Source: Planctomycetota bacterium
Lineage (GTDB): Bacteria; Planctomycetota; UBA1135; UBA2386
Assembly (NCBI GenBank): GCA_965223545.1
Contig: OZ245006.1
Span: forward strand, 736,001-800,000
Length of the DNA stretch: 64,000 nucleotides
Direction: 5' to 3'
The notes under the pieces are model-generated. The model worked only from the letters and a program-made list of their open reading frames with translations. It had not been told where the DNA came from and made no database searches. Positions 16,682-63,859 of the stretch are shown in pieces. The position numbers and the translations under genes are program-made. The number at the start of each line of letters is the position of its first letter. Position 1 is the stretch's first letter.

Positions 16682-16683
16682 GC

Positions 16684-44760: not shown

Positions 44761-44793
44761 GCCGCCCGCCGATCCGCGGCTACGCTGCCCCCG

Positions 44794-47713: not shown

Positions 47714-48942
47714 GCACGGTGGCCAGCGAGACCGCACAGGTCGGGGCCGACTCCGCCGACGCCGGCCGGCCATCGGTGTGGCACATCGGCGGCTCCGATG
47801 TCTACTTCCGCATTCCGCTGCTGCTGCGGCTGCGGCAGGCGGGGTTCGAGGTGGCCGCCGCCGGCACCAGCGACCCCGCCCAGTTCGAGGCCGTCGACAT
47901 CCCGTTCCACCACTACGACCTGAAGCCGGGGCTGGGGCCACTCGCCGACCACCGCGCGCGCCAACAGCTGACCGAACTGTTCGAACGGCACCGCCCGACG
48001 GTGGTCCACGCCTTCGACACCAAGCCGTGCGTGCTGGTGCCGTTGGCGCGGGCGCGGGTCCCCGCGGTGCGCTGCGTGCGCACGGTCACCGGGATGGGAC
48101 GCCTGTTCGCCGAGGACAGCCGCACGGCCGCCCTACTGCGCGTGGTGTACCGCCGCGCCCAGCGCCGCGTCGCGCCGATCACCGACGTGACGGTGTTTCA
48201 GAACGAGGACGACCAGCGCTACTTCCGCGAGCAGGACCTGTTGCGGGGGTGTCGCCATGAGCTGGTGCGGGGGTCGGGTGTCGACGTCGACGCGCTGCAC
48301 GCGGCGCGGCCGGACGCGCGCGCCTGCGCCGCCCTGCGCGCCGAGCTCGGTCTCGACGACCGCTTCGTGGTGTTGATGGTCAGCCGGCTGACCGCCACCA
48401 AGGGCGTGCGCGAGTACCTGCAGGCGGCGACCCAGCTCGCCAGCAGCGGCGCCACCCTGGTGCTGGTCGGACCGGTGGACGAGTTCGACGCCGACGCGCA
48501 GCGCCTGCTCGCCGAAGTCGAGGACCACCCGCACGTGCGCTACCTCGGCAAGCGCAGCGATGTGCCGAGTCTGCTGGCCATCGCCGACGCCTTCGCGCTG
48601 CCGACCTACTACCGGGAAGGCCTGCCGCGCGTGCTGCTCGAGGCCGCGGTCATGGGCGTACCCCTGATCACCACGAGTGTGCCCGGATGCCGGGACGTCG
48701 TTCCGGAAGCCAAGTACGGCATGATCATCGAGCAACGCTCGGCCGACGCCATCGCCACCGCGGTGACGACCCTGATCGGCGATCCCCCGCTGCGGGCCGA
48801 GCTGGTCGCCAACGCCCGAGACCGCGTGCAGTCCGCGTTCTCGCTCGACCACGTCGCCGCGCAGTATGCCGAGATCTACCGCAGCCTGTCGCCGCAAAGC
48901 GGTGCCCGGGCGCGCGGTGACGCGCCCGCATCGGAGCGCTGA
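47710..48942 (+). CDS. GT4 family glycosyltransferase (CapM/PglA-like)
   Basis: TVTGMG, FQNEDD, GSGVD, KGVREY, YREGLPRVLLEA, VPGCRD. Confidence 0.9.
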   Translation: MSTVASETAQVGADSADAGRPSVWHIGGSDVYFRIPLLLRLRQAGFEVAAAGTSDPAQFEAVDIPFHHYDLKPGLGPLADHRARQQLTELFERHRPTVVHAFDTKPCVLVPLARARVPAVRCVRTVTGMGRLFAEDSRTAALLRVVYRRAQRRVAPITDVTVFQNEDDQRYFREQDLLRGCRHELVRGSGVDVDALHAARPDARACAALRAELGLDDRFVVLMVSRLTATKGVREYLQAATQLASSGATLVLVGPVDEFDADAQRLLAEVEDHPHVRYLGKRSDVPSLLAIADAFALPTYYREGLPRVLLEAAVMGVPLITTSVPGCRDVVPEAKYGMIIEQRSADAIATAVTTLIGDPPLRAELVANARDRVQSAFSLDHVAAQYAEIYRSLSPQSGARARGDAPASER

Positions 48943-48980
48943 CCCGACCGAGACCGATCGGCCAGCGCGCTGCGCCCAGG

Positions 48981-50033
48981 TCAGTTCCTCACGCGGTCGT
49001 CGACGAAGAAGCCGAACTGCACGCGGACGATCTGCGCGATGAGCGACCGCGTCCAGGACGCCGCGGTGTGCTCCACCGCGATCACGTCCCCCGGCTTGAT
49101 CTGCAGCGCCGAGGCCGCGACCAGGCCATCGCCGGCGATCGAGAAGGTCGCGGGCAAGATCGTGCCGTCGGCATCGCGGCGGAAGACGGTGGCGAACGGT
49201 GGATCGGCGATCAGATCGACGCCGCCGGCGAACGCCAACGCCTGCATCAGGTTGTAGTCGGTCTCCGGCGGATACGGGTAGGCGCCGGGGTTCTGGACCA
49301 GGCCGACGATGGTGAAGGTGTCGGGCTCGTAGCGCTCGACCTCGATGGTCTCCCCGCCGTACAGCCCGACGTCGGCGAACGGGATGTTGAGGCCGCGCAC
49401 CGGCAGCACGACGTCTTCCACGCCGGCGCCGTCGGCACGCCGCACGCGGATGCGCCGCGCGCCGACGATCAAGTTGTTGGGCTTGAGGATGCCACCCGCC
49501 GCCGCCAGCGCGCCATACAGCGACAGCTGGTTGCTGCGCAGCTCGTGCACTCCGGGCTGCTCGACGGCGCCGACCACGTTGACGGGAAGCGTGTGGTGCT
49601 CTTGCACGCGCACGACTACCGAAGGCCGCCGCACCAACACCGACGGGTAGACCGCCTCGACGATGGCCCGCTCGACGTCCAGCACCGTCTTGCCCCGCGC
49701 CTTCACGCGGCCCGCCGCACCGACGTGGACGAAACCCTCGTCGTCGACGCGGACCGCGCGGCTCAGCTCGCCCGCCGCCTGGGCATCGTCCGCCGGAGTG
49801 GCGAACAGCCCCCAGGGGCCGGTCACCTCGAGGAGGTCACCGGCCACCAAGCGGTAGCGCCCGGGCGATGGCAGCCCGCGGGCGAGCTCCTCGCGATCCA
49901 GCTCGAGCTCGACCGGGCCAGCGTTGAGGAAGCGGCGCAGCTCGTCCTCGTCGAGGGGGTAGCGCGGCGCGGCGCAGGCGGCGAGCCCGGCCAACAGCAC
50001 GGCCACGGTGGTTGCGAATCGCGGCATGCTCAT
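48981..50033 (-). CDS. Polysaccharide export (OPX/Wza-like) lipoprotein with SLBB domains
   Basis: Lipobox LAAC; YRL..GD.L.V, VRVDDEG, VVGAVEQPG, ALAAAGG, IKPGDVI.V. Confidence 0.85.
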   Translation of the reverse strand: MSMPRFATTVAVLLAGLAACAAPRYPLDEDELRRFLNAGPVELELDREELARGLPSPGRYRLVAGDLLEVTGPWGLFATPADDAQAAGELSRAVRVDDEGFVHVGAAGRVKARGKTVLDVERAIVEAVYPSVLVRRPSVVVRVQEHHTLPVNVVGAVEQPGVHELRSNQLSLYGALAAAGGILKPNNLIVGARRIRVRRADGAGVEDVVLPVRGLNIPFADVGLYGGETIEVERYEPDTFTIVGLVQNPGAYPYPPETDYNLMQALAFAGGVDLIADPPFATVFRRDADGTILPATFSIAGDGLVAASALQIKPGDVIAVEHTAASWTRSLIAQIVRVQFGFFVDDRVRN

Positions 50034-51922
50034 CGGTCTCCCGCGTCGCGGCTGCGGGCGTAGTCGAAGTCGGTCAGGACGTACTGGTCGTCGGCGAGCC
50101 CGCGCGGCAGCGCACCGTAGGCGCCGACGCCGAGTCCCAGATCCCGATGGCGCGGCAGCTGGTTGAGTACGGTCCCCAGCAGCGGCACGCGCGCCGCGCG
50201 CATCACTTCGCTGGCGGCGGCGACGCGGTCGCTGGTGCTGCGGCCAGCCCGCGCGACCAGGATCGCCGCGTCGCAGTGGCTCGCCAACACGCGCGCGTCG
50301 GCCTGCCCGAGCACGGGCGGGGCATCGATGATGACCCGGTCGTAGTCGCTCTTGAGGTTCTGCACCACGCGGGAGAACCGGGCGGTGTGCAGCAGCTCCG
50401 GCGAGTTCGGCCGGATGCCGCCCGCCGAAAGCACGTCCAGGCGGCGCACCGCGGTATCGATGATGACGGCGTCGGGGTTGGCGCGACCGATCAACAGCTC
50501 GACCAAACCGATCTCGGCGGCGGCACCGAGCTCGAACAAGCGCCGCTGGCCGGGCATCCGCAAGTTGGCGTCCAGCAGCAGAACGCGTTCGCCGGAGCGG
50601 GCGAACGCGATCGCCAGCCCGGCCGCCACCAGCGACGCCCCATCGCGCCGATCCGGCGCGGCGACGACCAACGACTGGCCGACGCTGCCGGGCGCCGCCG
50701 AGACGACCGCGGCGCGCACGGCCCGCATCGCCTCGGCGTAGTCCGACGAGGAAAACCAAGTCGCCACCGCCGAACGCGCCTTGACGCGCACCACCGGCAC
50801 GCCGCCCAAGACGCGGATCCCGGTCGCGGAGAACAACCCGCGCGGACTGCGCACCCGCCGATCGAGAGAGCCGCCCAAGAACGCGGCCACGGTCGCCAAG
50901 ACGAGCCCCAGCAGCAGACAGATCGCCACCAGCACGGTCTTGGATACCGCCACCGTCGCGGTGCGCGGCGCGGCCTCCTCGAGGACCCGGATCACGCCGA
51001 GCGCGCCGTCGTGGCCGGTCGTCGGTGCAGTCAAGCTGAAGTCCAGCACGCGCTGGTGCAGCGCGTCGGACAGCCCGCGGGCCTGATCGACGCGCATGCG
51101 CTGCACCTCGGCGTCGAAGAAGCCGTCCGCCGACTCGGTGACCCCCGTCGAAAGGCGCTGCTGCAGGTCGGCGATCGATGCGTCCAGGCCGCGGATCACA
51201 TCGTGGTCGGCGGTGAGCTCGGCCGACAACGCGCGGCGGCGGTCCTGCAGCCGCAGCAGCTCGCGCCGCGTCTCCAGCTGCAACGCGTCCTCGGGCCCGG
51301 CGCCCCCGGGCGGCACGGCGTCCGGGTGCTCGGCCAGGGTCTCCAGCAGACGCTCTTGCTCCTCGCGCAAGCGCCCTTCCTGCCGCGCCAGCTCGTCGAC
51401 CAACCGCTCCTGCCGCTCGCCCAGCAGCTGCCGGTGCGCCGCCTCGCACTGCGCGCGGTACACCTCGACGATGCGGTTGATCACCCGGCACGCCTCGTCG
51501 CGGTGCGGCGACGTCATCGCCAGCGTGATCAAGCCGTCGTCGCCGCCGACGTCGACGGACACGTTCTTCTTCAACCAGGTGAGGTGGTTGTCCTCACCGG
51601 CGAGCAGCGCGCCGTCGCCGATCGCCGGCTCCTCCAGCACCGTCTCCAGCACCGAGCGGGCGGTCAGCTTGGCGGCGTGCGCGGCATTGACCGCGGCGGC
51701 GTCGGCCGCGGTCAACACCGGCCCTTGGCCGGTGGAGTTGGCGATGCCCAGATCGGTCTCGACGACCGACTGCACCCGCCACACGGGAGGCGTGGTGCTG
51801 ACGAACAGCAACCCGCCGGCGGCGACGAGGATCAACACGCCGATCGCCCACCAGCGGCCGCGCCACAGGGTGGCGACCAACTCGGTGAACGTCAGCTCGT
51901 TGGGTAGAGCGCGGGAGTCCAA
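50030..51922 (-). CDS. Polysaccharide co-polymerase/BY-kinase (Wzc-like) with degenerate Walker A
   Basis: Two TMs flanking a coiled-coil periplasmic domain; EAMRAVR, VLLLDANLRMP, VIIDAPP, GTVLN; Tyr-containing tail. Confidence 0.85.
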   Translation of the reverse strand: MDSRALPNELTFTELVATLWRGRWWAIGVLILVAAGGLLFVSTTPPVWRVQSVVETDLGIANSTGQGPVLTAADAAAVNAAHAAKLTARSVLETVLEEPAIGDGALLAGEDNHLTWLKKNVSVDVGGDDGLITLAMTSPHRDEACRVINRIVEVYRAQCEAAHRQLLGERQERLVDELARQEGRLREEQERLLETLAEHPDAVPPGGAGPEDALQLETRRELLRLQDRRRALSAELTADHDVIRGLDASIADLQQRLSTGVTESADGFFDAEVQRMRVDQARGLSDALHQRVLDFSLTAPTTGHDGALGVIRVLEEAAPRTATVAVSKTVLVAICLLLGLVLATVAAFLGGSLDRRVRSPRGLFSATGIRVLGGVPVVRVKARSAVATWFSSSDYAEAMRAVRAAVVSAAPGSVGQSLVVAAPDRRDGASLVAAGLAIAFARSGERVLLLDANLRMPGQRRLFELGAAAEIGLVELLIGRANPDAVIIDTAVRRLDVLSAGGIRPNSPELLHTARFSRVVQNLKSDYDRVIIDAPPVLGQADARVLASHCDAAILVARAGRSTSDRVAAASEVMRAARVPLLGTVLNQLPRHRDLGLGVGAYGALPRGLADDQYVLTDFDYARSRDAGDR

Positions 51923-52003
51923 GAGGGGAGTTTCGGGTTCGGGGAGCCTTCGGAGTTCTCTTCGGCGGCCGGCGGCACGGGGCTTGAAGATGGCGAACCG
52001 CGC

Positions 52004-52031
52004 AGCCTACCCCAGCCGCCGCCGGTGCCAA
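52004..52031 (-). promoter_or_regulatory. Promoter candidate TTGGCA-N16-TAGGCT upstream of the wzc-like gene
   Basis: Minus-strand hexamers in the 135-bp intergenic gap; GGTAGGCT recurs upstream of the dehydratase gene. Confidence 0.35.
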
Positions 52032-52057
52032 GCCAGGACACCGGTCGGGCGCCGTCT

Positions 52058-54115
52058 TCAGGCCGATGCGCCGGCGGGCACGGCGCCCGCGCTGTCTGCG
52101 CTGCCGCGACCACCGCGTTCCGGCTGGTACTCCGGGAGCACGGCGGCCAGGGCACGCCGGAGATCGTCCGCCGCTTGCCCGGGCGCACCCAGCTCGGCGA
52201 CCACCTCTTCGATGTTGCGGTGGAACGATGCCTGCCCGCGCCACACGAACACCTTCTGGCAACGCGTCGCGTCGACCAATTCGTCGGTGAAGCCGAGCTC
52301 TTCGTACATTTTCTCACCCGGGCGAATGCCGGTGAACTGAATCTCGACGTCGACGCCCGGCTCGAGGCCGGACAGTCGAATCATCTGCTCGGCCAAGTCG
52401 ACGATGCGCACCGGCTCGCCCATGTCGAGCACCATGACGTCGCCCCCCTGCGCCAAGCCGGCCGCTTCGAGCACCAGCCGCGACGCCTCGGGAATCGTCA
52501 TCACGAAGCGCGTCATGTCTTGGTGCGTGACCGTCACCGGCCCACCCTTCGCGATCTGCTCGCGGAACAGCGGAATCACGCTTCCCGCCGAGCCGAGCAC
52601 GTTGCCGAAGCGCACCGCGACGAAACGCGTGCTGCTGCTGCGCTGCAGGTGCTGGACGTAGAGCTCGGCGAGGCGCTTGGTCGCGCCCATCACCGAGGTC
52701 GGGTTGACCGCCTTGTCGGTGGAGATCTGCACGAAGCGCTCGGCGCCGTACTCGTGCGCCAAGTCGGCCACTTGCTTGGAGCCGAGCAGGTTGTTCTTGA
52801 TCGCCTCGCCCGGATTGGCCTCCATCATCGGCACGTGCTTGTGCGCCGCCGCGTGGAACACGATCTGCGGCCGGTGCTGCTCGAACACCGCCCGCATCCG
52901 CGCGGCATCGCCGATGCTGCCGATCATCGGCACGATCTCGGTCTGCAGCGCCTTGGCCGACAGCTCGCGGTCGATGTGGAACAGGTTGTTCTCGCAGCTC
53001 TCGACCAGCACCAGCCGCCGTGGCGCCAGCGCCAACAGCTGGCGGCACAGCTCCGAGCCGATGCTGCCGCCGGCGCCGGTGACCAACACGATCTTGTCCG
53101 GCACGATCTTCTCGGCCGCCGAGTCCTCGATCACCACCGGCTCGCGCCCCAGCAAGTCCTCGATGGCGACGTCGCGCATCTGCGAGATGCTGAAGCGCCC
53201 GCTCAGCAGGTCGTGCAGCGCCGGAATGATCTTGGCTTTGAGCCCAGCCGCTTCGCACTCGGCAGTGATCCGCTTGACCAGATCACCGCGCGCACCGGCG
53301 ATGGCGATCAACGCCACTTCCGCCCCGGTGCGCTTGGCGACCCGATGCAGATCACCGACCCGTCCCTGCACCGGGATGCCGTGCACGGCGCGCCCCTGCT
53401 TCTTCGGGTCATCGTCGAGGAACGCGACCGGGACCAGGCCGACGTCGGCGCGGCGCTCGAGCTCGCGCGCGAGCAGGTGCCCGGCGTGACCGGCGCCGAT
53501 GAGGATCGCGGGAACGACGCGGCCGCGCTGGATGCGGTGCCGCAACAACCCGCGCTCGATCTGCATGCGCCGCACGACGCGGATCCCCGCGATCCCCAAC
53601 AACATGAGGACCGCGTCGATCGCGATCACGCCGAGCGGCAGCGCGGTGGCCGAGAGCCCCAGCGGCAGCTGCTGGCCCGCGACCGAGAAGCGCAGCACGG
53701 TGAGCACCAACACCGAGGCCGCGGTTCCGTACATCACCGGCGGCAGCTCGCGCAGACTGACGAGGCTCCAGGGGCAACGCGTCACGCCGAAGGCCCACAA
53801 CGCCAGAAACTGCCCCCCGATCACCCACGGCATCGCCTGCCAGAGCTGCTCGGCGTAGCGCGGCTCCAGCTGCCAGTCGAAGCGGAACAGGAACGCCAGA
53901 CACAACGCCACCGCCAACACCGCCAGGTCGACCAGCGCGCGCAGCGGCGGCGCCATCATCGTCGGCACGTAGTAGTACAACGGCGACCGGCTCGGCCGGC
54001 CACCGGGGGATTCGTCGACCGGGCCGCCCAGATCGATCCGACGCACCGCCCGCGCCGAGGGAATCCACGGAGCCCCGGAGGTCCGTTCTTCTTCTTGGGT
54101 TGTTCCGCGCTTCAT
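52058..54115 (-). CDS. Membrane-anchored UDP-GlcNAc 4,6-dehydratase (PglF/WbpM/CapD family)
   Basis: Four N-terminal TMs; IGAG.AG, TGAGGSIGSEL, FHAAAHKHVP, STDKAVNPTSVMGATK, VRFGNVLGS, RPGEK. Start uncertain (54115 or 53959). Confidence 0.92.
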   Translation of the reverse strand: MKRGTTQEEERTSGAPWIPSARAVRRIDLGGPVDESPGGRPSRSPLYYYVPTMMAPPLRALVDLAVLAVALCLAFLFRFDWQLEPRYAEQLWQAMPWVIGGQFLALWAFGVTRCPWSLVSLRELPPVMYGTAASVLVLTVLRFSVAGQQLPLGLSATALPLGVIAIDAVLMLLGIAGIRVVRRMQIERGLLRHRIQRGRVVPAILIGAGHAGHLLARELERRADVGLVPVAFLDDDPKKQGRAVHGIPVQGRVGDLHRVAKRTGAEVALIAIAGARGDLVKRITAECEAAGLKAKIIPALHDLLSGRFSISQMRDVAIEDLLGREPVVIEDSAAEKIVPDKIVLVTGAGGSIGSELCRQLLALAPRRLVLVESCENNLFHIDRELSAKALQTEIVPMIGSIGDAARMRAVFEQHRPQIVFHAAAHKHVPMMEANPGEAIKNNLLGSKQVADLAHEYGAERFVQISTDKAVNPTSVMGATKRLAELYVQHLQRSSSTRFVAVRFGNVLGSAGSVIPLFREQIAKGGPVTVTHQDMTRFVMTIPEASRLVLEAAGLAQGGDVMVLDMGEPVRIVDLAEQMIRLSGLEPGVDVEIQFTGIRPGEKMYEELGFTDELVDATRCQKVFVWRGQASFHRNIEEVVAELGAPGQAADDLRRALAAVLPEYQPERGGRGSADSAGAVPAGASA

Positions 54116-54427
54116 CGTTGCAAGAGGGGCGACCTGCCGAGAGGCCAGGCGTTCCCCGAAGTGGACCGGTGTTATCCGCAAACCGGGAGCCTTTCGGCGC
54201 GGCACCGCGACCACCGGTGCCCTCCGGTGGTCGGGCGGGTAGCCTACCCAATCCTCGGCACGCCCGGGGCCAGGGCGCACCCCCCATTTCGGCCTCGGGA
54301 TTGGCCCGAGGCGCCATCCTAGCCGCAGCCTACCTCAAACGCCGCTCCCACGGCAGTTTCCGCGCCGGTTCCATGTTGCGGCCCACCGTCTTTGTTTGCG
54401 ACTTGCCTCCGGCCGCCTCCGGCGGAG

Positions 54428-55582
54428 TCAGCACCGACTCCAGATGGCGGCCGCTGCGGCGGCAAGCGAGTCGTCTTCACGCACCCGGACCACATGCATC
54501 AGCGGGTCGACCGCTTGAACGGCACCGCGATCGGAGGCATCGCCGTCCTCGAGCGCCAGGACGAGATCCGCGCCGCGCTCCGGCGCCCCGGCACCCGCGC
54601 TCGGCGCGAGGACCAGGTGTCCCCGCGCGCGCAGCCGCGACGCCCGCCGCCATGGGGTCGAGCCGGAGCCGACGACCGTCGGCCACGCCACGACGTCGAA
54701 CTTCGCAGCGAACAAACCGCGCAAGCCGGACACCAGCGACCGCGCCACCGCCCGATCGCTCGCCCGCACCAAGACCAGCATGCCGCCGGCTGCAGCACTG
54801 CGGGCGCGGACCCATGGCACGCCTTGCAGCCGGAGACCCAATGCCCGCCAGACCAGGCTCAGCTCACGCCCCCAACGCCGCGCCGCCGCCGCCGGCCCCG
54901 TCCACGCGACGTGGTCGGCGAGCGCCCGCCAAGCCACCGCGCGCACGCCGAGCAGCGTGTCGACCCTCAGCTCGCGTGCGGCGGTGCTGACCGCGCGCGC
55001 GCCGTCTGCCCCGAGCCAACTGCGCGCGCAAGCCTCGACCTCGGTCAAGTCGCAGTCGCGCAACAGCGCGTCGAGATCGCCAGCGGTCTTCTCGATCCAC
55101 CGGCGCTGCACCTTCGGCTGCCAACGGTCGCGCCAACGCCACAACACCGCCCGCCGCAGGAGCAGCAAGACCACTTCCATCGCCGGTGCGGCTCCCGACA
55201 CCGACGTGCCCGGGATCGGGCAGCGCGCGGCCAGCACCTCGTGCTCGAACGGCAGGCGCAGCCGGTTGAGACGAGGCTCACCGGCGACCATCCGGTAGTG
55301 GACATGGAAGTGCACGAAGCAGCACTGGGCGGCATCGAACGCGAAGTAGTCCTCGAGGCCCGCATCGGCGCGCAGCGCATGCGTGCGCGGCCGCCGAAAC
55401 CCGCTCGCCAACAACGCCGTCGCCAGCGCGGGCGCGTGCTCCGGCTCGACCAACAGATCGATGTCGCCGCGGCCGGCGAGCCCGTCGGCCAGCCGCCGGG
55501 TACCCCGCCACAGGCAGTACGACACCTCGGCATCGGCGAGGTGGGCGAACGCCATCTCGGCGGGCGAACGGGCATCGCTCAT
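54428..55582 (-). CDS. Hypothetical protein: nucleotidyltransferase-like N-domain plus degenerate P-loop kinase C-domain
   Basis: YCLW...GRGDIDLLV (G-D-x-D), HFHVH. The C-terminus aligns by eye with 59183-60610 but lacks GxGKS. Confidence 0.6.
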   Translation of the reverse strand: MSDARSPAEMAFAHLADAEVSYCLWRGTRRLADGLAGRGDIDLLVEPEHAPALATALLASGFRRPRTHALRADAGLEDYFAFDAAQCCFVHFHVHYRMVAGEPRLNRLRLPFEHEVLAARCPIPGTSVSGAAPAMEVVLLLLRRAVLWRWRDRWQPKVQRRWIEKTAGDLDALLRDCDLTEVEACARSWLGADGARAVSTAARELRVDTLLGVRAVAWRALADHVAWTGPAAAARRWGRELSLVWRALGLRLQGVPWVRARSAAAGGMLVLVRASDRAVARSLVSGLRGLFAAKFDVVAWPTVVGSGSTPWRRASRLRARGHLVLAPSAGAGAPERGADLVLALEDGDASDRGAVQAVDPLMHVVRVREDDSLAAAAAAIWSRC

Positions 55583-57054
55583 GCTTTCCCCCCGGCCGAA
55601 CGGCGCCGCAGCTTCGACGAGAGCCACATCCCCGACTGGCCCAGGACGGGCGCGGGCGCCAGGCGCGCGGCGATCGCCACCGGCACCCCGACGCCGGCAA
55701 GCGTGCCCATGAGCACGCCGAGCGGCGACCACGCCGCCGAGCGGAACAGGGTGGCCAGCAGCCAGCCGCCGGTGACGACCGGCGCGGCCAACAGCAGGCC
55801 GTGCACGTGCCACGAGGCGAACACCGACCACCGGATCTGCAGCGCTGCCAAGCTCATCTGGGCCATCACCAGGTAGTTCGCGATGATCGCCACGCCGATC
55901 CCCGCCGCCACTCCAGCGACACCGAACCCGGTGCCCGCCAGCGCTCCGGCGACGACGAGCGCGGTGAACAGCGCCAGCCGCGCGGACCGCTCGTAGACCT
56001 TGCCGGTCGCGCGCGCCAGCGAATCGCTGATCTTGTAGCCGGTGCGGAACACGAGCACCGCAGCCAAGATCTGGAACGGCAGCACCGCGGCATCCCAACC
56101 CGGGCCGAGCACGACCCGCACACACTCCGGGCCGAGCACGACCCCGAGACCACCGGCGGCGGTCATCAGCGACGCGACCAAGCCGATGCCGCGGGAATAC
56201 GTCTCCGCCAACCGTTCGCGGTCGTCTTGAAAGCGCGCCATCATCGGAAACAGCACCCGGTCGAGCACTTCGCCGACGTACATCGCCGGCATCGTCATCA
56301 GCTGGTGTGCGCGGCCGTAGACGCCGAGATCGACCGCGGTCATGCACCGGCCGATGACGACGCGGTCCGCCTGCCCCGCCGAGTACGCGAACAGCCGGCT
56401 GAGCATGAACCCCCCGCCGAAGTACATCAGCTCCGCGGTCGGGCGCCGGCGCGGCAGGATGCCACGCGGATGCGGCCGCGCCGCCACCAGCACGACCGAT
56501 TTGACCGCGGCCTGCGCCAGCTCGGCCGCGGCCAAAGACCAGATTCCGGCACCCGCCATCGCCAGCCCGATGCCGACCGGCATGTACACCGCGGTGAACG
56601 AGAGCAGCTCCGACAGGGCGATGGGGCGCAGCTCCAGATCGCGCTGCAGCAGCGCTTCGGGCACCACGCTCGGCGCCTGCAGCAGGATGGCGAACGCCAT
56701 CCAGCGCAGCAGCTCGAGCAACGACGGCATCTCAAACCACGCCGCGACGGCCGGCGCGCCGATCCACATCGCCGCGACGAACAAGAGCGCGCCGTGCGCC
56801 GACAGCGCGAACGCCGTGCGCACGTGCTCCTCGCCGATCGCGCCACGCTGCACCAGCGCCGGCCCGACCACGACCTGACTCAGCAGGCGGCCGAGACCGA
56901 CCAGCACCCGCGCCGCGGTCACCACGCCGAGCTCGGCAGGGGTCAGGTAGCGGGCCAGCACCGCCAGCAGGACGAACTGGCCGAGACCCTGCGAGCCGAA
57001 CCCCACCGCGGCCCAGGCGAGCCAGCGGACCCCCTTGGAAGGGCCCGCGCTCAA
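55579..57054 (-). CDS. Polysaccharide flippase (Wzx/PST family)
   Basis: LARYLTP.ELG, ALVQR, LLQRDL, GIWSL, D..VIGR, LGVY.RA, LFP; about 12-14 TM. Start approximate. Confidence 0.88.
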   Translation of the reverse strand: MSAGPSKGVRWLAWAAVGFGSQGLGQFVLLAVLARYLTPAELGVVTAARVLVGLGRLLSQVVVGPALVQRGAIGEEHVRTAFALSAHGALLFVAAMWIGAPAVAAWFEMPSLLELLRWMAFAILLQAPSVVPEALLQRDLELRPIALSELLSFTAVYMPVGIGLAMAGAGIWSLAAAELAQAAVKSVVLVAARPHPRGILPRRRPTAELMYFGGGFMLSRLFAYSAGQADRVVIGRCMTAVDLGVYGRAHQLMTMPAMYVGEVLDRVLFPMMARFQDDRERLAETYSRGIGLVASLMTAAGGLGVVLGPECVRVVLGPGWDAAVLPFQILAAVLVFRTGYKISDSLARATGKVYERSARLALFTALVVAGALAGTGFGVAGVAAGIGVAIIANYLVMAQMSLAALQIRWSVFASWHVHGLLLAAPVVTGGWLLATLFRSAAWSPLGVLMGTLAGVGVPVAIAARLAPAPVLGQSGMWLSSKLRRRSAGGKA

Positions 57055-57206
57055 CGCCCGCCCCCACCGAGTGGCCAGACCGCTCGCCCGGGGACGGCCG
57101 CCCCCACGGCAGCTTGCGCTTGCCACCCGCCGATGCCGATGACACAGTCGGGACGCTGCCCTGGCGCGGCGCCCCGCGGGGCTGCCAAGCCCGCCGAGAA
57201 CACGCC

Positions 57207-58442
57207 ATGCACACCGCCGTCGCCGTCATCACCATGATCACCATGGTGCTGTTGCCGCTGCAGTGCGTGGAGCTGCCGCTCAACACCTCGATCCTCGACT
57301 GGTGGAACGCGGCGACGCTGCCGTTGCTGCTGGCCTGGCTGCTGCGCGGCGACCGCCCGGTGCACTTGCCGCTGTTCACCTGCAACGTGCTGATCTGGGT
57401 GTCGGCCCTGGTCGCCAGCTGCGTGTCGCTGTTCCCGACGATGGGGCTCGTCGCCACCATCAAGGAGATCTATCTCTACGCGTGGTTCGTCACCCTGGTC
57501 GGCGTGTTCGCGTACCTCGAGCCGCGCTGGCAACAGCGCATCCTCGCGGTCTGGGTCACGGTCGCTTGCGGCCACGGTCTGTTGATCCTCGCGCAATTCG
57601 AGAGCCCGGCTCTGCTCGACGCAATGAATGCCCGGCTGCGCGGCATCGGTCATCTCGACCCGCACCGACCGTCGGGGCTGATCAACAACTGCAACGCCGC
57701 CGCGGTCTACCAGCTGATGGCGTTCCCGGCGGTGATGATGTGGCGCACTCCGGTCTGGCTGCGCGTCGGCGCCCTCGCGGTGCTGTCGCTCAGCTTGGTC
57801 GGCACGGGTTCGATGGGCGCGCTCGCTGCCGCGATCGCCGGTGCCGCGTTCGGCCTTGCGCTGATTCCAATGCTGTACCGCGACTGGGCGCTGACGATGC
57901 GCTGCATCGTCGCCGCGCTGGTCGGCGGCGCAGTGCTGCTCGGCGTCGGCGCGGTCTGGCTGAGCAACGACCCGGAGCTGGCAGCCCAGCTCGAGGCCAT
58001 GCTGTTCGGCCGCACCGACCGCTCGGCCGGCAGCCGGTTCGAGCTCTGGGGCGCGGGGCTGGCCCTGTGGGCAGAGGGCGGCCACGTGCTCGGCATCGGC
58101 CCGGAAACCTATTGGCAGATCGCGCACAAGGAGCTGCACAACGACGCCATCGCGTTCACCGTCGAACGCGGCATCCTCGGCGTGATCGCGGTGGTCGCAC
58201 TGCCCTCGGTCGTCCTGGTGCGCGCCTTCCACGCCGTGCGGCTGGCGCCGGGAGAACGCGCGCGGCTGGTGTTTCCAGCACTGGTCGTCGCCGCAGTGGT
58301 CGAGTCGCTGACCCACGAGATCCTGCACTGGCGCCAGCTCTGGCTGGCGCTCGCACTGATGGAGGGAGTCATCGCCAGGCACGCGGTGGTCCAGCGCTCC
58401 GCCGGACCGCAACGGTGGCAACTGTCGCCGTCGCCCGCCTGA
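57207..58442 (+). CDS. O-antigen ligase/Wzy polymerase family protein
   Basis: R.SGLINN.N, TGSMG, SRFELW, LGIGP, HN......VERG.LG; multi-TM. Confidence 0.8.
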   Translation: MHTAVAVITMITMVLLPLQCVELPLNTSILDWWNAATLPLLLAWLLRGDRPVHLPLFTCNVLIWVSALVASCVSLFPTMGLVATIKEIYLYAWFVTLVGVFAYLEPRWQQRILAVWVTVACGHGLLILAQFESPALLDAMNARLRGIGHLDPHRPSGLINNCNAAAVYQLMAFPAVMMWRTPVWLRVGALAVLSLSLVGTGSMGALAAAIAGAAFGLALIPMLYRDWALTMRCIVAALVGGAVLLGVGAVWLSNDPELAAQLEAMLFGRTDRSAGSRFELWGAGLALWAEGGHVLGIGPETYWQIAHKELHNDAIAFTVERGILGVIAVVALPSVVLVRAFHAVRLAPGERARLVFPALVVAAVVESLTHEILHWRQLWLALALMEGVIARHAVVQRSAGPQRWQLSPSPA

Positions 58443-58460
58443 CGCGGTGGCCACCCGCAT

Positions 58461-59186
58461 CTAAACCGCGGTCCCCGAAGCCTTCGGAGCCAGCGCTCCC
58501 ACCCTGTCAGCCAGCCGGGCAGCCTCCCGCTCCAGACTCACCGGCGCGCCGTTGTCGACCACCGTCAACGGCACTCCGGTGTCGCGACCCAGGGCGACGA
58601 CGCGAGTCAGCAGCGCCGCGCACCGGCTCAGGATCTGCGGATCTCGATCCAGCTGGCGATCCACCCGCGAATCGCGCTCCGGCCGGGCGCGGATGCGCGC
58701 CTCGACCAGCGCCAAATCGACCTCGACGAACACGAACAGGTCGGGCAGCGGCGTCGCCAACACCGGCGAGCTCAGCACTTGCAGCGCCCGGTCGGCGTCG
58801 CCCTCAAGCGCCAACGACAGCACCGCCTGCAGCAATCCCTGGTCGAAGAAGTGGATACCGCCCCGCCTCTGCGCGCGACGGGTCAGGCCGCGCACCAGCC
58901 AGAGATTGAACAACAACTTCGCGCCCGAACGCGTCGTCGGCTGGCGGGTCGAGCGCACGAACGACCACGCTTGCAGCGATCGGCGGGGGTGCCGCATCAG
59001 CTCGACAGCCACGTGGCCGAGCTTGGCGAGGACTCGTAGGGGACGCCTTCTACCGTGCGCGAGGTGGTAGCAGGTCTGGTCGACCACGACGCCACGGGCG
59101 GCGAGCTCGCGGGCCGCGGCCCGCGATAGCGCCGACTTGCCGGAGCCCGGCATGCCGACGAACTCGACGCAGACGCCGCGCGTCAT
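58461..59186 (-). CDS. P-loop nucleoside-monophosphate-kinase-like protein
   Basis: VEFVGMPGSGKS, FFDQG, PDLFVFVEVD...RIRAR. Confidence 0.7.
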   Translation of the reverse strand: MTRGVCVEFVGMPGSGKSALSRAAARELAARGVVVDQTCYHLAHGRRRPLRVLAKLGHVAVELMRHPRRSLQAWSFVRSTRQPTTRSGAKLLFNLWLVRGLTRRAQRRGGIHFFDQGLLQAVLSLALEGDADRALQVLSSPVLATPLPDLFVFVEVDLALVEARIRARPERDSRVDRQLDRDPQILSRCAALLTRVVALGRDTGVPLTVVDNGAPVSLEREAARLADRVGALAPKASGTAV

Positions 59187-60610
59187 CGCAGCGCCGCCCA
59201 GAGCGCCGCGCGAACCTGCCGCTGGACGTCCTCGATCGGCGCATCGGCATCGATGACCGCGATGGCAGCACCGCCGAAGCGCATCCGTTGGACCGCATCG
59301 ATCCGGCGGCGGACCTCTTCCCGACTCATCTCCGGCCGGCGCGCCAGCGAGACGTCTTCGGTGACGCACAGCTTGAGCACGAGATCCGGAGGCTTCTGCT
59401 CAGCTTGGCTGTAGGCGCGCCGCTCCCACGCCGCGATTCGGCGCACCCAACCCCAGCGATGCGTCTCCCACGCGGACAGAATCGGTCCGTCGTTGAAGCC
59501 CATGATCTCGTTCTGCGGGTAGCGATCGGAGACCACGACGTGCCCCGCATCGCGCGCGCGCCAGGCGGCACGCAGCTTGCCGCGCTTCTCGTGGCTGAGC
59601 ACCAGAGCCCAGAGCACACGGGCCGCGCGCAGCGGCCACGAGCGCCGCTCGGGGGACGGCGCGGCTTCGCTCGCCGCCGTCTTCTTGGTGGTCGGCTCGG
59701 GCGCCTTTGCCGGCGCCTTCTTCCGACGCCGCAAAAGGCGCAGCACCCAGACCATCGGGCGACGCAGCCAGGAGCTGGGGCCGTCGCCGCTGCCCAGGTA
59801 GGCGGGCTCGAGGCGCAGCACCGGCGCCAGCCATTGCTGCAGCGCCTCCACGGTCGTCGATTTGCCCGCGCCATCACAGCCGAGCAGCGCAATAAGCCGG
59901 CCCGCACCGGCCATCGGCACCGGCAACGCGGACGTCGCAGGCGCGCCCGGTGCCCTCGGCAAAGCTGAGGTGGTCGGCGCGGCGGCGCGGAGCCAGGTCG
60001 CCAGGGCCGCCGCCCCCGCGCCACCGTCGACAAGCGCGGCCACGGCGGCGCCACACGCCGCGCCACCCCACGTGGTCATTCGACTTGCGACCTCCTCTGC
60101 CTCGACCCCCGGCGCGAGCGCCGCCAGCTTCGCGCGCAGCTGCGCCGCGGCTTGCTCATCGGTGCCAGCTTCGACCGCCCAGCGCAGCGCGGTCAGCGCG
60201 AACACGCTCGCCAATGGTAGCACCCCACGGTCGACTGCTTCGCGCAACGCGCCGGCGTTGGGTAGCTCGTACGCAGTGGATCCCACCGCGTAGCGCAGCC
60301 CCTCCGCGACGGTGACCACAGTCGGCAGTTCGCCTTCGCTCCAGTGGGCGAGGCTCACACCGCACAAGCCAGCAGCGATGCCGCGGAGCTCGATCGCGCC
60401 AACCGCGCGCAGTGCATCCACCGCGCTGCCGCGAGCCGATCCTTCGATCAGCACAGCGAGCCGCGGCACGCCGTCGCCGAGCACGCCGTCCTCCCACACG
60501 GTCGCCGGGACCCCGGCCGCGGCCAATGCATCGATCACCGCCCCCCATCGCTCTTCCACAGCGTCCTCGCCGGCCACCGCGACCGCCGTTAGTCGTCCCG
60601 CCGCAGCCAT
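59183..60610 (-). CDS. Thymidylate-kinase-like protein with a degenerate nucleotidyltransferase-like N-domain
   Basis: IALLGCDGAGKSTT, YLGSGDG, VVSDRYPQ, PDLVLKL, IDAD. Confidence 0.7.
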   Translation of the reverse strand: MAAAGRLTAVAVAGEDAVEERWGAVIDALAAAGVPATVWEDGVLGDGVPRLAVLIEGSARGSAVDALRAVGAIELRGIAAGLCGVSLAHWSEGELPTVVTVAEGLRYAVGSTAYELPNAGALREAVDRGVLPLASVFALTALRWAVEAGTDEQAAAQLRAKLAALAPGVEAEEVASRMTTWGGAACGAAVAALVDGGAGAAALATWLRAAAPTTSALPRAPGAPATSALPVPMAGAGRLIALLGCDGAGKSTTVEALQQWLAPVLRLEPAYLGSGDGPSSWLRRPMVWVLRLLRRRKKAPAKAPEPTTKKTAASEAAPSPERRSWPLRAARVLWALVLSHEKRGKLRAAWRARDAGHVVVSDRYPQNEIMGFNDGPILSAWETHRWGWVRRIAAWERRAYSQAEQKPPDLVLKLCVTEDVSLARRPEMSREEVRRRIDAVQRMRFGGAAIAVIDADAPIEDVQRQVRAALWAALR

Positions 60611-61545
60611 GCGACGAACCGCTCGATGCCCTCGTCGAATCCCACCGCCGGCGCGAAACCGAGGGCCGTGCGCGCGGCGTCGGTCTGCGCCCAGGTGCGG
60701 GTGACGTCACCGACCTGCCGCGGCTGCCAGTCGACCACGGCCTCGACCTCGAGCGCGCGCTCCAGCGTCTCGATCATCTCTTTGACCGAAACCACGCGCC
60801 CGCCGCCGAAGTTGAGAATGGCGAAGCCGAGCGGATGGTCCGCGGCACGGGTCAGGCCCTCGACGAGATCGTCGACGTAGGTGAAGTCGCGCACCGCCGA
60901 ACCGTCGCCGAACACCGGGATCGGCGTGCCGGCGCGCATCCGATCGGCAAACTTGCGGATCGCCAGGTCGGGCCGCTGCCGCGGGCCGTACGCGGTGAAG
61001 ATCCGGATGCAGGACACCGACAGGCCGTGCGCGTGGTGGAAGGTGTGGGCCACCAACTCGCCGGCGCGCTTGGTCGCCGCGTACGGCGACACCGGCCGCT
61101 CGACCGGGTCGGTTTCGCAGAACGGCCCGTCCTCGCGCTCGCCGTACACCGACGACGACGAGGCGAACACGAACTGCGGCTTGCCGAACTTGGCCGCGGC
61201 CTCGAGCAGCACCGAGGTGCCGTGCACGTTGACCGAGGCGTACTCCGCGGGGCGCTCCAAGCTGGGCCGCACCCCGGCCAGGGCGGCGAGGTGCACGACG
61301 GCGTCGAACTTGCCGGCCTCGAACACACGGTCGACGACTGCCGCGTCGCGGATGTCGCCCCGGACCAGCGAAAACGCGGGGTTCTGGTTGGCGCGCTCCA
61401 GGTTGCGCAGCTTCTGCGCCTCGGGGTAGTAGGGGTCGAAGTTGTCGAGACCGACGACGGTCCGTCCTTCGGACAGCAGCCGCTCGGTCAACGTCGAGCC
61501 AATGAAGCCGGCGGCGCCGGTGACCAGCACTCGTTTCGCGCTCAT
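60589..61545 (-). CDS. UDP-glucuronate 4-epimerase-like NAD-dependent epimerase
   Basis: TGAAGFIG, HLAALAGVRPSL, SSSSVYG, YAATK, YGPRQRPDLA. Confidence 0.9.
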   Translation of the reverse strand: MSAKRVLVTGAAGFIGSTLTERLLSEGRTVVGLDNFDPYYPEAQKLRNLERANQNPAFSLVRGDIRDAAVVDRVFEAGKFDAVVHLAALAGVRPSLERPAEYASVNVHGTSVLLEAAAKFGKPQFVFASSSSVYGEREDGPFCETDPVERPVSPYAATKRAGELVAHTFHHAHGLSVSCIRIFTAYGPRQRPDLAIRKFADRMRAGTPIPVFGDGSAVRDFTYVDDLVEGLTRAADHPLGFAILNFGGGRVVSVKEMIETLERALEVEAVVDWQPRQVGDVTRTWAQTDAARTALGFAPAVGFDEGIERFVAWLRRDD

Positions 61546-62255
61546 GCTCTGCACTCCCGCCCGGCCGTGACGGCCGCGATCGTCTCACTCTCGATCCACC
61601 CCGCTTGCCGCGCCCACTCGAGCTCGGGCGGCAGCGGAAACTGGCGCCGGCCGGCGGCGACCGCGGCGATGACCGCCCCGGTGCGTGCGATGACCGCCAG
61701 GTCGTAGCCGAACGAGGCGCGCGCCAGGTAGGCGCGCTCGATAGCCATCTTGAGCGGCAGCAGCCGCTCGACGTAGGCCGTTTCGGGGTCCTCGCCGCTG
61801 AGCAAGGCATCCCCGTGCGTGTAGTTGAAGATGCTGCCCGGGCTGGCCAAACCCGGCCGCACCGCCAGGGTCGCGCGATAGTCCACGGTGTAGTGCCGCT
61901 CGACGATCGCCGGATCCTCGGGCCGCGGCCCGACCAGCGTCATCGCACCGCGCAACACGTCCCACAGCTGCGGCAGCTCGTCGACCTTGGTCGTGCGCAG
62001 CAGCCGTCCGACCGCGAACACCCGCGGGTCGCGCGCGCCGGTGATCACGCTGCCGCGCGCGCCGGGGCTGGTGACGTGCATGGTGCGGAACTTGTGCATG
62101 GTGAACGGCGCTCCGCCGCGCCCGACGCGCTGCGCCCGATAGAGCACCGGGCCGCGACTGCTGAGCGCGACGCCGAGCGCCGCGACCAGGAGGAGCGGCG
62201 ACAAGGCGATCAGCAAGACCGCCGATGCCAGCATGTCAAACGCCCGCTTGGCCAT
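61542..62255 (-). CDS. Priming phosphoglycosyl transferase (small PglC/WbaP-type)
   Basis: KRAFD, KFRTM, DPRV..VG, DELPQLW.VL.G.M.LVGPRPE, RPG. Confidence 0.92.
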   Translation of the reverse strand: MAKRAFDMLASAVLLIALSPLLLVAALGVALSSRGPVLYRAQRVGRGGAPFTMHKFRTMHVTSPGARGSVITGARDPRVFAVGRLLRTTKVDELPQLWDVLRGAMTLVGPRPEDPAIVERHYTVDYRATLAVRPGLASPGSIFNYTHGDALLSGEDPETAYVERLLPLKMAIERAYLARASFGYDLAVIARTGAVIAAVAAGRRQFPLPPELEWARQAGWIESETIAAVTAGRECRA

Positions 62256-62916
62256 TGCGCCGGATCCTGCGCACCGTCATGAACACTTCCGCAGCGTCGA
62301 GACAGCACTGGTTGCCCCACGCCTTGGCCTTGTGGGTGAGCGCCTCGAGCGAGCGCGGGTGCGGATAGTCGCGCAGCTCGCTCTCGTAGCAGCGCATCGC
62401 GGCGAGCTTCTTGTCGAGCACCGAGGAGATGTCGATCCACGTGTCGGGCGCGAAGCTGCGCGGGTACGCCCATTCGGTACTGCTGGCGGTGTCGAACGCG
62501 TACACCGCCTCGATGCAGGGCTCGGTCGGCCGTGCCGCCACCAAGATCGCCTTGAACAACAGCTCGTGGTCGCGGTTGATGTCGCCACCGTACTGGCAGT
62601 ACACGACACGCGGCTGCAGCTCGCGGACGATCGCCTCGATCGGCGTGATCACGTCGGTGAGGGTGAGCGTGTCCAGGTGCTGGTCGGGAAAGCGCAAGAA
62701 GCGCACGTCGCGGACCCCGAGCACGTCGGCGGCGGCGCGGGCGTGCTGCTCGAGACCGACCTCCGCCTCCGAGTAGCGCAGGGACTCGCCCTCGCAGGCG
62801 ATCACACTGGTCACCACGTCGCCCTGCGCGGCGTGCAGGGCGGCGGTCCCCGCACACCCCAGCAGCTCGTCGTCGGGGTGCGCGGCGAGGATCAGGACGT
62901 TGGCGGGCTCACTCAT
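62236..62916 (-). CDS. PIG-L/LmbE family deacetylase (or deformylase)
   Basis: AAHPDDELLG, FPDQ, DINRDH, KLAAMRCY.SE, HPRS, AEVF. Confidence 0.88.
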   Translation of the reverse strand: MSEPANVLILAAHPDDELLGCAGTAALHAAQGDVVTSVIACEGESLRYSEAEVGLEQHARAAADVLGVRDVRFLRFPDQHLDTLTLTDVITPIEAIVRELQPRVVYCQYGGDINRDHELLFKAILVAARPTEPCIEAVYAFDTASSTEWAYPRSFAPDTWIDISSVLDKKLAAMRCYESELRDYPHPRSLEALTHKAKAWGNQCCLDAAEVFMTVRRIRRNGQAGV

Positions 62917-63859
62917 CGGCGAACACCTTGCCCTCCCAAGGGAGGGCGCACAACTCCGGTCCCCGGGTTACCGCGCCGCTCTCGTCCTCGACCTCCAACA
63001 CCGCGAGCACGCCCTCGCCGGTGGCGACCAGCCAGCCGCAGGCCGCCGGCTCCGGGCTGACCACCGGCCCGAGCACGGTGCCCGGCGCGCCCCAGTCGCG
63101 GCCGGCGGGCGGCAGCAGCGCGGCTTGCCACACGGTGTAGCGCTGGCCTTCGATGAAGGAGAACGCCCCGGGGTAGGGCCGGGTCAGGCCGCGCACCATG
63201 TCGTAGACCGCGCGCGCGGACTGCTGCCAGTCGAGCAGGCCGTCGGCCGGCCGCCGCCGCGGCAGAATGGGCTCGTCGGTGTGCTGCTGCGGCCGGCCGC
63301 TCCGCTCGCCGCGCAGCAGGCGCGACCAGAGCGCCACGATCATGTCGCGGTTGGCTTCGGCGACCTTCTCGTACAGCGTGGCACAGGTGTCGAACGGCGT
63401 CACCGGGAACGAGCGGCTGTCGATGATGTCACCGCTGTCGACCCCCTCCGCCAGCCACATCAGCGTGTTGCCCGAGGTCTTCTCGCCGCGGATCAGCGTC
63501 CAGTTGATCGGCGCGCTGCCGCGGTTGTGCGGCAGCTCGGAGGCGTGCGCACCGATCAGCCCCACCCGGATCAAGTCCATCGCCGGCTTGCGCACGATCT
63601 GGCTCCAACCGATCACGAACAGGACGTCGAGCTGCTGCTCTTCGAGCAGCGCGAGCGCGGCCTCGTCGTTGATGTTGCGCACCGTGTGGGGCTCGATGCC
63701 GAACTCGGCACACAGCGCCGGGTAGTCGGCGACGCCGCTGCGCTTTCCCGCCAGCTCGGGGTCCAGCGTGATGACGCACGCGACGTCCTCACCGGCCGCG
63801 AGCAACGCCCGCAACGCCGGAATGCCCTCGACGTGGAATCCGAGCCAACCGATCCGCAT
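62909..63859 (-). CDS. N10-formyl-THF-dependent formyltransferase (Fmt/ArnA-N-like, probably sugar-acting)
   Basis: IGWSQI, HASELP.NRG.APINW, GVDSGDI, RGLTRPYPGAF; GAGG RBS. Confidence 0.88.
   Translation of the reverse strand: MRIGWLGFHVEGIPALRALLAAGEDVACVITLDPELAGKRSGVADYPALCAEFGIEPHTVRNINDEAALALLEEQQLDVLFVIGWSQIVRKPAMDLIRVGLIGAHASELPHNRGSAPINWTLIRGEKTSGNTLMWLAEGVDSGDIIDSRSFPVTPFDTCATLYEKVAEANRDMIVALWSRLLRGERSGRPQQHTDEPILPRRRPADGLLDWQQSARAVYDMVRGLTRPYPGAFSFIEGQRYTVWQAALLPPAGRDWGAPGTVLGPVVSPEPAACGWLVATGEGVLAVLEVEDESGAVTRGPELCALPWEGKVFADE

Follow-up and report, generated by a model that had tools for sequence, protein, structure and literature searches.

In an extract of the report on the pseudomycoidin cluster (PMC6993621), the nucleotidyltransferase (NTase) PsmN, modelled on ANT(2'') (4xje), requires its D-x-D motif to add a hexose onto a phosphate made by a kinase. 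The MOP flippase TacF monitors the phosphocholine decoration placed by LicA, LicC and LicD, as stated in an extract of PMC13385700, and a kinase-first route leads to the phosphodiester head group of a ceramide in Caulobacter (extract of PMC11324152). The ygh genes of Escherichia coli are called uncharacterized in the passage of PMC9278758 that mentions them. Here we describe three genes, A, B and K, from a Wzx/Wzy-type polysaccharide locus of a Planctomycetota bacterium; the whole stretch of DNA analysed, hereafter the window, comprises 64,000 nucleotides (contig OZ245006.1, positions 736,001 to 800,000). Sequence profiles identify A and B as two copies of an NTase-kinase fusion, each lacking the catalytic motifs that the other retains. 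The functions of the fusion have very probably been split between them. In the reading that we propose, whose chances we judge to be evenly balanced, a phospho-tailoring reaction on the lipid-linked sugar unit is predicted to precede flipping by Wzx, with A performing the transferase step and B and K the kinase steps.

The preliminary description of the locus had aligned A and B by eye. This alignment could not be proven directly, since the best pairwise BLAST match of A to B had an E-value of 1.5 and shuffle tests of the halves of A against those of B were not significant (Z -0.9 and 1.9). The common origin of A and B is established instead because both match a profile of intact relatives, not each other. 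The search with B retrieved 45 relatives, mostly 490–560 residues long, which carry the N-terminal blocks YCHWKSNEH..G.TDLD..HLHLHY and the C-terminal blocks GxDGxGKS..DRYPQ..GFNDG. A family profile built from 40 intact relatives, with A, B and P0006 (the closest full-length relative of B) excluded, matched A with 180 bits (profile positions 25–323; hhalign 99.9%) and B with 288 bits (positions 243–513). By these matches, A and B belong to a family of approximately 510-residue fusions of an NTase-fold and a thymidylate-kinase-fold domain, as the proposed descent from such a fusion had anticipated, and all six motif pairs picked out by eye agree with the family alignments. Neither A nor B holds both sets of catalytic motifs in one chain; both are half-dead variants. 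Of the positions with at least 90% conservation across 164 intact rows of the alignment, 19 per half, A retains 17 of 19 in the NTase half and 7 of 19 in the kinase half, and B retains 7 of 19 and 19 of 19, respectively, with the counts for the dead halves resting on poor alignment. The reciprocal loss of catalytic motifs was thereby confirmed.

Gene A is composed of an NTase-fold domain (residues ~6–208), a helical linker, and a reduced pseudo-kinase core (residues ~265–384). It retains the D40-x-D42, H91/H93/H95 and P133-x-x-E136 residues of the NTase. The preliminary observation that A keeps G-D-x-D and has lost the P-loop is correct: G39-D40-I-D42 is present, and ASDRAVAR stands at the position of the P-loop. 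The kinase half additionally lacks the DRY motif and most of a basic amphipathic insert of ~75 alignment columns. Its C-terminal 120 residues nonetheless score 6.4 bits against the profile of the family C-half, above 300 of 300 shuffles, and were modelled as a reduced P-loop core (Z 10–11) without insert and DRY. In the predicted model, the closest fold to the N-domain is that of MenT1 (Z 10.9, root-mean-square deviation (rmsd) 3.7, 163 aligned residues); ANT(2'') 4xje also matches (Z 9.7, rmsd 3.8, 154 aligned), as do JHP933, MenT3/TglT and LnuA. The modelled fold and the D-x-D motif place A in the Pol-beta-type nucleotidyltransferase superfamily. MenT1 and MenT3, which are AbiEii-like, and ANT(2'') and LnuA share with A the fold of this superfamily, the D-x-D and a helical C-lobe, but they are only 10–19% identical to it, and the family of A differs in its YCHWKSN and HxHxH motifs, its polysaccharide context and the absence of a toxin-antitoxin layout. 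The HxHxH of the family lies on the strand that would be expected, in this fold, to hold the third catalytic acid, and E136 is invariant. The match of A to PF14907 (NTP_transf_5, PsmN-like; 19.6 bits, E 7e-4) is below the gathering cut-off of 31.2, and 16 of the 40 family members match it at E≤0.01 (best 4e-5); by these scores A is related to PF14907 but is not a member of it. A protein search with A alone retrieved only A itself, and a PDB sequence search gave no match. The ESM Atlas returned unnamed clusters of 334–363-residue proteins (0.95–0.96), which are leads only.

Gene B consists of an eroded NTase half (residues ~1–232) and an intact thymidylate-kinase-fold half of the YghR/S/T type (residues ~233–475). 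As had been claimed, it retains GxDGAGKST, in the form GCDGAGKST, and DRY, and it has lost G-D-x-D, the position of D-x-D being occupied by RLAVL. The dead NTase half alone scores 1.5 bits against the family N-half, a marginal value that 2 of 300 shuffles reached. It was placed in the NTase family because P0006 bridges B to the family: the N-half of B matches that of P0006 (Z 3.2), which in turn scores 35 bits against the family N-half, with 0 of 300 shuffles as high. A profile of B and P0006 aligns colinearly to the N-half of the family (E 5.5e-5, probability 38%). The N-half of B is thus likely to be an NTase remnant, tied to the family through P0006. All N-halves are eroded in the clade of B (P0002, P0006, P0007 and P0026; support 97/96, bootstrap unsettled), and that of P0007 has shrunk to ~112 residues. 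The erosion is graded, with 12, 9 or 7 of the 19 NTase invariants left in different copies. The progressive loss of the N-half in this clade suggests that its end point may be two independent enzymes.

The uncharacterised E. coli ATP-binding proteins YghR, YghS and YghT match the family C-half profile over their full length (127–135 bits, E 1e-37 to 1e-39), whereas the N-half profile gave no match to them. Judged by profile and shared motifs (GxDGxGKS, DR[YF]PQ, DG and PD), the C-half of B is a YghR/S/T-type kinase. The likeness extends to the genes, since several kinase paralogues stand next to a flippase-like gene, yghQ. The Ygh kinases differ in lacking an NTase half and in having intact P-loops in all three proteins, and they are encoded in a serine-palmitoyltransferase/acyl carrier protein (ACP)/LptFG cluster instead of a Wzy polysaccharide locus. 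Where this E. coli region is undisrupted (L160:1510-14480, NZ_CM148631.1), yghQRST adjoin genes for serine palmitoyltransferase, ACP, an acyl-AMP ligase and LptF/G, and no glycosyltransferase is annotated in the cluster. The position of yghR/S/T beside flippase-like and serine palmitoyltransferase genes, with no annotated glycosyltransferase, points to lipid-linked substrates and suggests a role of the Ygh kinases in a sphingolipid pathway. No paper on a link between yghQRST and sphingolipids was found in the open full-text literature. In K-12, the serine palmitoyltransferase/ACP/acyl-AMP ligase/LptFG cluster beside ygh is deleted around an IS5 element. Stand-alone homologues of the kinase half (Ygh-like, ~220–270 residues) also occur in the phylum of the window, often two per genome (G341:C250, G341:C122, G355:C79, G414:C34, L089, L090).

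B scores below the thymidylate kinase (Tmk) cut-offs of PF02223 (22.4 versus 27 bits) and TIGR00041 (18 versus 83 bits). A model of an intact family member (pLDDT 89, pTM 0.86) has thymidylate kinases as the nearest folds of its C-half (Z 17.0, rmsd 3.6, 174 aligned), and shares with them the P-loop and the DR motif. However, the identity is 18–24%, and the fusion has a large basic amphipathic insert, an NTase half and a patchy distribution in polysaccharide loci. A PDB sequence search with B gave matches at the level of the P-loop only. The insert after the P-loop of B has a net charge of +15 and an 11-residue hydrophobic moment of up to 0.72.

The stand-alone kinase K has an intact P-loop GMPGSGKS, a DQG motif and R164/R168. 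All residues that are invariant in its family are thus present: the glycines and the lysine of the P-loop, DQG and a pair of arginines. The insert after the P-loop of K has a net charge of +14 and an 11-residue hydrophobic moment of up to 0.85. The basic amphipathic inserts of K and of the kinase half of B suggest membrane binding. BLAST of K directly against B gave no significant match, and the K profile matches the Ygh proteins with 8–17 bits in the P-loop region only; by its profile, K belongs to a nucleoside monophosphate (NMP)-kinase-fold family separate from the YghR/S/T-type kinases. Adenosine 5'-phosphosulfate (APS) kinases are among the fold and profile matches of both the K profile and the C-domain of A, and the ESM Atlas returned AAA_33/TMK-labelled clusters for K as leads only. 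The description of K as a third kinase holds in that K is a conserved partner of the fusion, but K is not special to the locus of the window, as it forms part of the intact cassette.

A scan of species-representative genomes detected at least 330 relatives of the family among at least 603 pattern matches; the patterns favour intact copies, and 79 loci were kept. They come from Cyanobacteriota, Bacillota, Pseudomonadota, Actinomycetota, Bacteroidota, Gemmatimonadota and other phyla. The distribution is patchy: the family was found in 4 of 339 genomes of the order of the window, 7 of 401 of its phylum, and 34 of 401 of the phylum of locus L037. Pfam scans covered 162 neighbours in 14 loci, of which two lie in the genome of the window, and identified Wzx/Wzy genes throughout the foreign loci. 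The predicted enrichment of homologues in Wzx/Wzy loci is borne out, as all 56 loci of at least 12 kb contain a polysaccharide gene (wzx, GT4, sugar transferase or wzc, detected by profiles built from those same loci), compared with 49 of 403 bins of 20 kb from the genome of the window. The gene directly before the fusion is wzx in 35 of 74 cases, K is the next gene after it in 46 of the 71 cases with room, and wzx was detected in 34 of the 56 long loci. The usual order of the intact cassette is wzx-fusion-K, across many phyla. In the window this order is split, with A retaining the junction with wzx and B the junction with K.

Variants of the cassette were observed in individual loci. The NTase, kinase and K are contained in a single 760-residue open reading frame (ORF) in L079:9920-12199; a K-like kinase is fused N-terminally to an NTase-dead copy in L078:1271-3595 (775 residues); and wzx and the fusion share one open frame of 1093 residues in L023:1325-4603, which may be two genes or have a separate start. 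In a Christensenellales locus, two tandem fusion-K cassettes are followed by a 925-residue protein with a true PF14907 domain (L029:17319-20093). Genes for ATP sulfurylase/APS kinase and sulfotransferase adjoin the cassette in L070:5698-7416 and in L078:5208-6218 and 16044-18566. The genome of the window encodes a third, distant NTase-kinase fusion of 488 residues with both motifs intact (SDVD, FLQID and APDGGGKS; L087:10330-11793, C1:6295329-6296804). The second polysaccharide locus in which it lies also contains GT4 and Wza/Wzc-like genes. Common in the phylum of L037 is a distant subfamily (YCQWKG..GxGDID; LCERYP) that has a small kinase of its own (L093, L095-L099, L101, L102, L105-L123). 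Its loci hold the nearest relatives of the DegT, formyltransferase, PIG-L and sugar transferase proteins of the window (56–75% identity), hinting at a mosaic origin of the window locus.

The reciprocal loss is not confined to the window. Among 160 family genes of the fetched loci, 124 are intact, 14 retain the NTase only, 13 retain the kinase only, 9 are partial, and none is dead in both halves. A reciprocal pair, named A' and B' here, is present in 12 loci, and no locus has two copies dead in the same half. The 12 loci have the order wzx-(one gene)-A'-formyltransferase/PIG-L-GT4-B'-K; K was mapped or matched after B' in 10 of them, and a contig edge ends the remaining two. The B' gene of L136 is cut by the contig end, and L131 has a similar gene set with one intact copy. 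A protein search detected 49 relatives of A' with the NTase motif and without the P-loop, down to 56% identity. Phylogenetic trees (LG+G4, 42 rows) show A' and B' as sisters in the N-half (96/85), and therefore the Gemmatimonadota pair arose by duplication. Ratios of nonsynonymous to synonymous substitution rates (dN/dS) from five lineages are 0.27 in the NTase core and 0.37 (0.19–0.51) in the dead kinase half of A', and 0.53 (0.37–0.85) in the dead NTase core and 0.30 in the kinase half of B'; the Nei-Gojobori values are inflated by high GC, and cyanobacterial intact genes used as a control gave 0.07–0.19. Since dN/dS is below 1, the dead halves of A' and B' are constrained, with relaxed constraint in B'.

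The window A forms a long branch (1.1–1.3 changes per column) near actinobacterial intact copies, a placement that is unsupported in the 42-row tree. The free trees favour an origin of the window pair independent of the Gemmatimonadota pair. Joining A/A' with the kinase-dead copy of L092 was rejected (p 0.003), and therefore the kinase was lost at least two times, each with loss of the insert. That A and B of the window genome are mutual duplicates is conjectural: each has one informative half, and the NTase half of A and the kinase half of B have different nearest relatives. The earlier interpretation thus stands with respect to the fusion origin, the reciprocal loss, the enrichment in polysaccharide loci and the partnership with K, whereas the duplication, the hetero-oligomer and the proposed reactions are conjectures.

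The ORFs of A, B and K were recovered at the positions previously reported (Table 1). The reported translational couplings of wzx with A and of B with K are correct, as both junctions are ATGA overlaps of 4 nucleotides, in the first of which the stop of wzx overlaps the start of A. The wzy gene of the window is inverted; it lies between wzx and K, divergent from wzx and convergent with K. Judging from this strand layout, wzx-A and B-K are probably separate transcription units that are not co-transcribed. The DegT and GT4 genes (46511–48942) are also on the plus strand, and the locus looks rearranged. Genes for an alpha/beta hydrolase, a type II thioesterase and a methyltransferase directly precede DegT (43510–46418); no nonribosomal peptide or polyketide synthase is visible in the part scanned. 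The Wza-like export lipoprotein was named by eye and has no Pfam match at 1e-12. Contigs of two public runs, which may be from the source sample, span the region without a single mismatch or gap; the low-share public runs X5 and X6 yielded only short pieces. A tblastn search found no concealed intact half of A or B in other frames, and a frameshift artefact as the cause of the dead halves was ruled out by this search and the identical contigs. The frames of A, B and K are open, with normal third-position GC along all three. A promoter scan of the region gave no sigma-70 site, and such a scan is uninformative at 71% GC.

Table 1 Features of the polysaccharide locus, in window positions
Feature	Position	Strand	Basis or remark
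DegT aminotransferase and GT4; Wza-like lipoprotein, Wzc-like co-polymerase and CapD-like dehydratase	46511..54280	+ (DegT, GT4); - (others)	span of downstream locus genes
Gene A, 384 residues	54428..55582	-	ORF list and family profile alignment
Dead P-loop of A, ASDRAVAR, residues 274-281	54740..54763	-	aligned to family GxDGxGKS
Metal-binding motif of A, G39-D40-I41-D42	55457..55468	-	D40 and D42 invariant in family alignment
Wzx flippase, MOP/TuaB-WzxC-like	55579..57126	-	PF13440, 204 bits
Wzy/O-antigen-ligase-family membrane protein	57207..58442	+	PF04932 (Wzy_C)
Gene K, 241 residues	58461..59186	-	stand-alone NMP-kinase-fold protein, partner of fusion family
Gene B, 475 residues	59183..60610	-	ORF list and family profile alignment
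D362-R363-Y364 motif of B	59519..59527	-	sequence
Intact P-loop of B, G244-CDGAGKS-T252	59855..59881	-	sequence
NAD-dependent epimerase	60589-61554	-	Pfam scan; upstream part of locus (60589..63859)
Initiating sugar transferase	61542-62255	-	Pfam scan; upstream locus gene
PIG-L deacetylase	62236-62916	-	Pfam scan; upstream locus gene
Formyltransferase	62909-63859	-	Pfam scan; upstream locus gene

Based on these observations, a mechanism can be proposed, in which retained motifs are taken to mean activity. The ancestral unit would have been wzx-fusion-K. A second copy, gained by duplication or acquisition, would have allowed degeneration and complementation, so that the pair would represent a gene fission caught midway: one copy keeps the transferase site and the coupling to wzx, and the other keeps the kinase site and the coupling to K. 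The basic amphipathic inserts may hold B and K at the inner face of the membrane, where the kinase would phosphorylate either a small donor or the repeat unit on its undecaprenyl carrier. The domain of A that resembles PsmN and ANT(2'') would then cap the kinase-made phosphate with an NMP or a sugar, resulting in a phosphodiester substituent, which the flippase may check as TacF does phosphocholine. The dead halves are likely retained partly as folding or docking scaffolds. We have moderate confidence in this chemistry. An obligate complex of A and B is possible, although the phospho-tailoring scheme does not require it; prediction of the complex gave a median score of 0.24 against a mark of 0.32 (runs 0.24, 0.49 and 0.01, without folded controls), values that speak neither in favour of binding nor against it.

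The precedents of PsmN and TacF support the logic of the kinase-then-cap scheme, not the identity of its parts. PsmK and PsmN resemble the pair in combining a kinase with an NTase, and A matches both 4xje and, weakly, PF14907; in the extract of their description, they differ in the HprK-family kinase, the lasso peptide substrate, the separate genes and the absence of a flippase. The pneumococcal Lic genes, as far as the extract describes them, likewise comprise kinase, activation and transfer genes that put a phosphodiester on a lipid-linked repeat unit. None of A, B and K matches the LicD, LicA or LicC families; the LicD profile matches neither A at E≤0.1 nor the 40 family members at E≤0.01, and LicD/FKRP is absent among the listed fold matches, much of which the kinase domain fills. 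LicA is of the choline-kinase type, a fold unlike that of the fusion kinase.

Several observations weigh against the assignment of a transferase step to A and kinase steps to B and K, or limit its reach. A carries K26R and N28T-type changes in the YCHWKSN motif, and its model was built on an alignment of mostly intact relatives, which biases the fold. The sugar gene content varies widely among cassette loci, which fits a common substrate, such as the carrier lipid or the flippase, equally well. The 12 reciprocal loci represent one Gemmatimonadota lineage, including the named Gemmatimonadetes record L037, in five clusters at 95%; ten of them come from a metagenome scan with an A-type query, and an extra gene separates wzx from A'. 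Forced joins of A with A' and of B with B' were not rejected (approximately unbiased (AU) test, p 0.19 and 0.32). No other genome with the pair was found among 339 of the order or class of the window. Half-dead copies occur without a partner in the incomplete genomes G470 and G478 and beside an intact copy in L078 and G781, and eight loci keep two intact copies; therefore, the decay of halves is not always reciprocal.

The cassette might instead be an ATP-dependent accessory or checkpoint of the flippase, acting on the carrier lipid or on Wzx, with the pseudo-domains as subunits of a flippase-bound complex. The wzx-fusion-K order retained across phyla with differing sugar genes is consistent with this role, as are the three homologous E. 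coli kinases, whose genes adjoin a flippase-like one in a sphingolipid cluster that has no annotated glycosyltransferases or NTase half, the joint open frame of wzx and the fusion in L023 (subject to a separate start), and the purifying selection on the dead halves. However, a pure motor would need no NTase, and the NTase half with its invariant D-x-D is retained in 138 of 151 complete family genes. Moreover, only 34 of 56 long loci have a detected wzx, and well-studied Wzx systems are not known to depend on partners such as the fusion or K. We consider an accessory role of this kind unlikely. A route through a soluble donor, modelled on the synthesis of 3'-phosphoadenosine 5'-phosphosulfate (PAPS) or of Campylobacter phosphoramidate, appears more doubtful still: K or B would phosphorylate a small molecule, A would make its nucleoside diphosphate form, and the second kinase may add a 3'-phosphate. 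One NTase and two NMP-kinase-fold domains are the set required, the fusion kinase retains a thymidylate-kinase-like DRY, and APS kinases are among the matches of the K profile and the C-domain of A. On the other hand, no conserved downstream phosphotransferase was seen in the neighbour clusters or Pfam scans, in which several neighbours had no match at 1e-10, the closest folds of A are acceptor-modifying NTases (MenT1, ANT(2'') and LnuA), and both kinases bear basic amphipathic inserts.

The long branch of A and its lack of close relatives in the protein search, the rearranged locus, the half-dead copies without partners elsewhere, and the absence of the pair from 338 other genomes of the order would also be expected if A, B or both were decaying relics of an unused cassette that became reciprocal by chance. 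This is improbable, given that A retains 17 of 19 NTase invariants despite ~30% overall identity and B all 19 kinase invariants, that the frames are open with normal third-position GC, that the same pattern is under selection in another phylum, and that none of the 151 complete family genes has two dead halves. We give hardly any credence to a MenT/AbiEii-like NTase toxin or a nucleotide-signalling unit under kinase control that merely resides in polysaccharide loci. The N-domain of A does match MenT1, JHP933 and MenT3/TglT best, and entries for these proteins mention phosphorylation or co-expression with a kinase. However, the TM-scores from Foldseek are low (0.3 by query), other NTases such as ANT(2'') score alike, the surroundings are of the Wzx/Wzy type throughout and include translational coupling to wzx, and no antitoxin-like partner was seen.

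The statement that no system like A, B and K has been characterised agrees with searches of the open full-text literature, in which no paper on the family was found among the matches listed (subscription papers and supplements lie outside this scope) and the reciprocal split form was not found either. The parts are of known kinds, namely a Pol-beta-fold NTase, Ygh/TMK-fold kinases and subfunctionalisation, but the cassette itself is uncharacterised, and its reciprocally split form is new. Duplication-degeneration-complementation and the fission of bifunctional enzymes provide the general model. The pairs conform to it in that two copies each keep one catalytic site and the Gemmatimonadota pair are sister paralogues; unlike in the general fission model, graded intermediates are visible, and kinase-dead copies have shed the insert at least twice independently.

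We speculate, with only a small expectation of being right, that the flippase, the fusion and K constitute an ATP-driven machine, shared across phyla, which licenses lipid-linked glycans, and via YghQRST bacterial sphingolipids, by phosphorylating and capping them before flipping. The fusion would be oligomeric, with catalysis in trans, and would have been repeatedly split into NTase/pseudo-kinase and pseudo-NTase/kinase subunits. If so, the split subunits would be a natural pair of separation-of-function mutants. The cassette is present in at least 330 species-representative genomes and has uncharacterised E. coli relatives in YghR/S/T; should its role be to tailor or license lipid-linked repeat units, it would supply a step so far missing from Wzx/Wzy polysaccharide assembly. 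The split form separates the two activities naturally, reveals which of them pairs with the flippase and which with K, and makes the function testable by complementation. Its graded eroded halves provide a clear bacterial example of enzyme fission through reciprocal degeneration.

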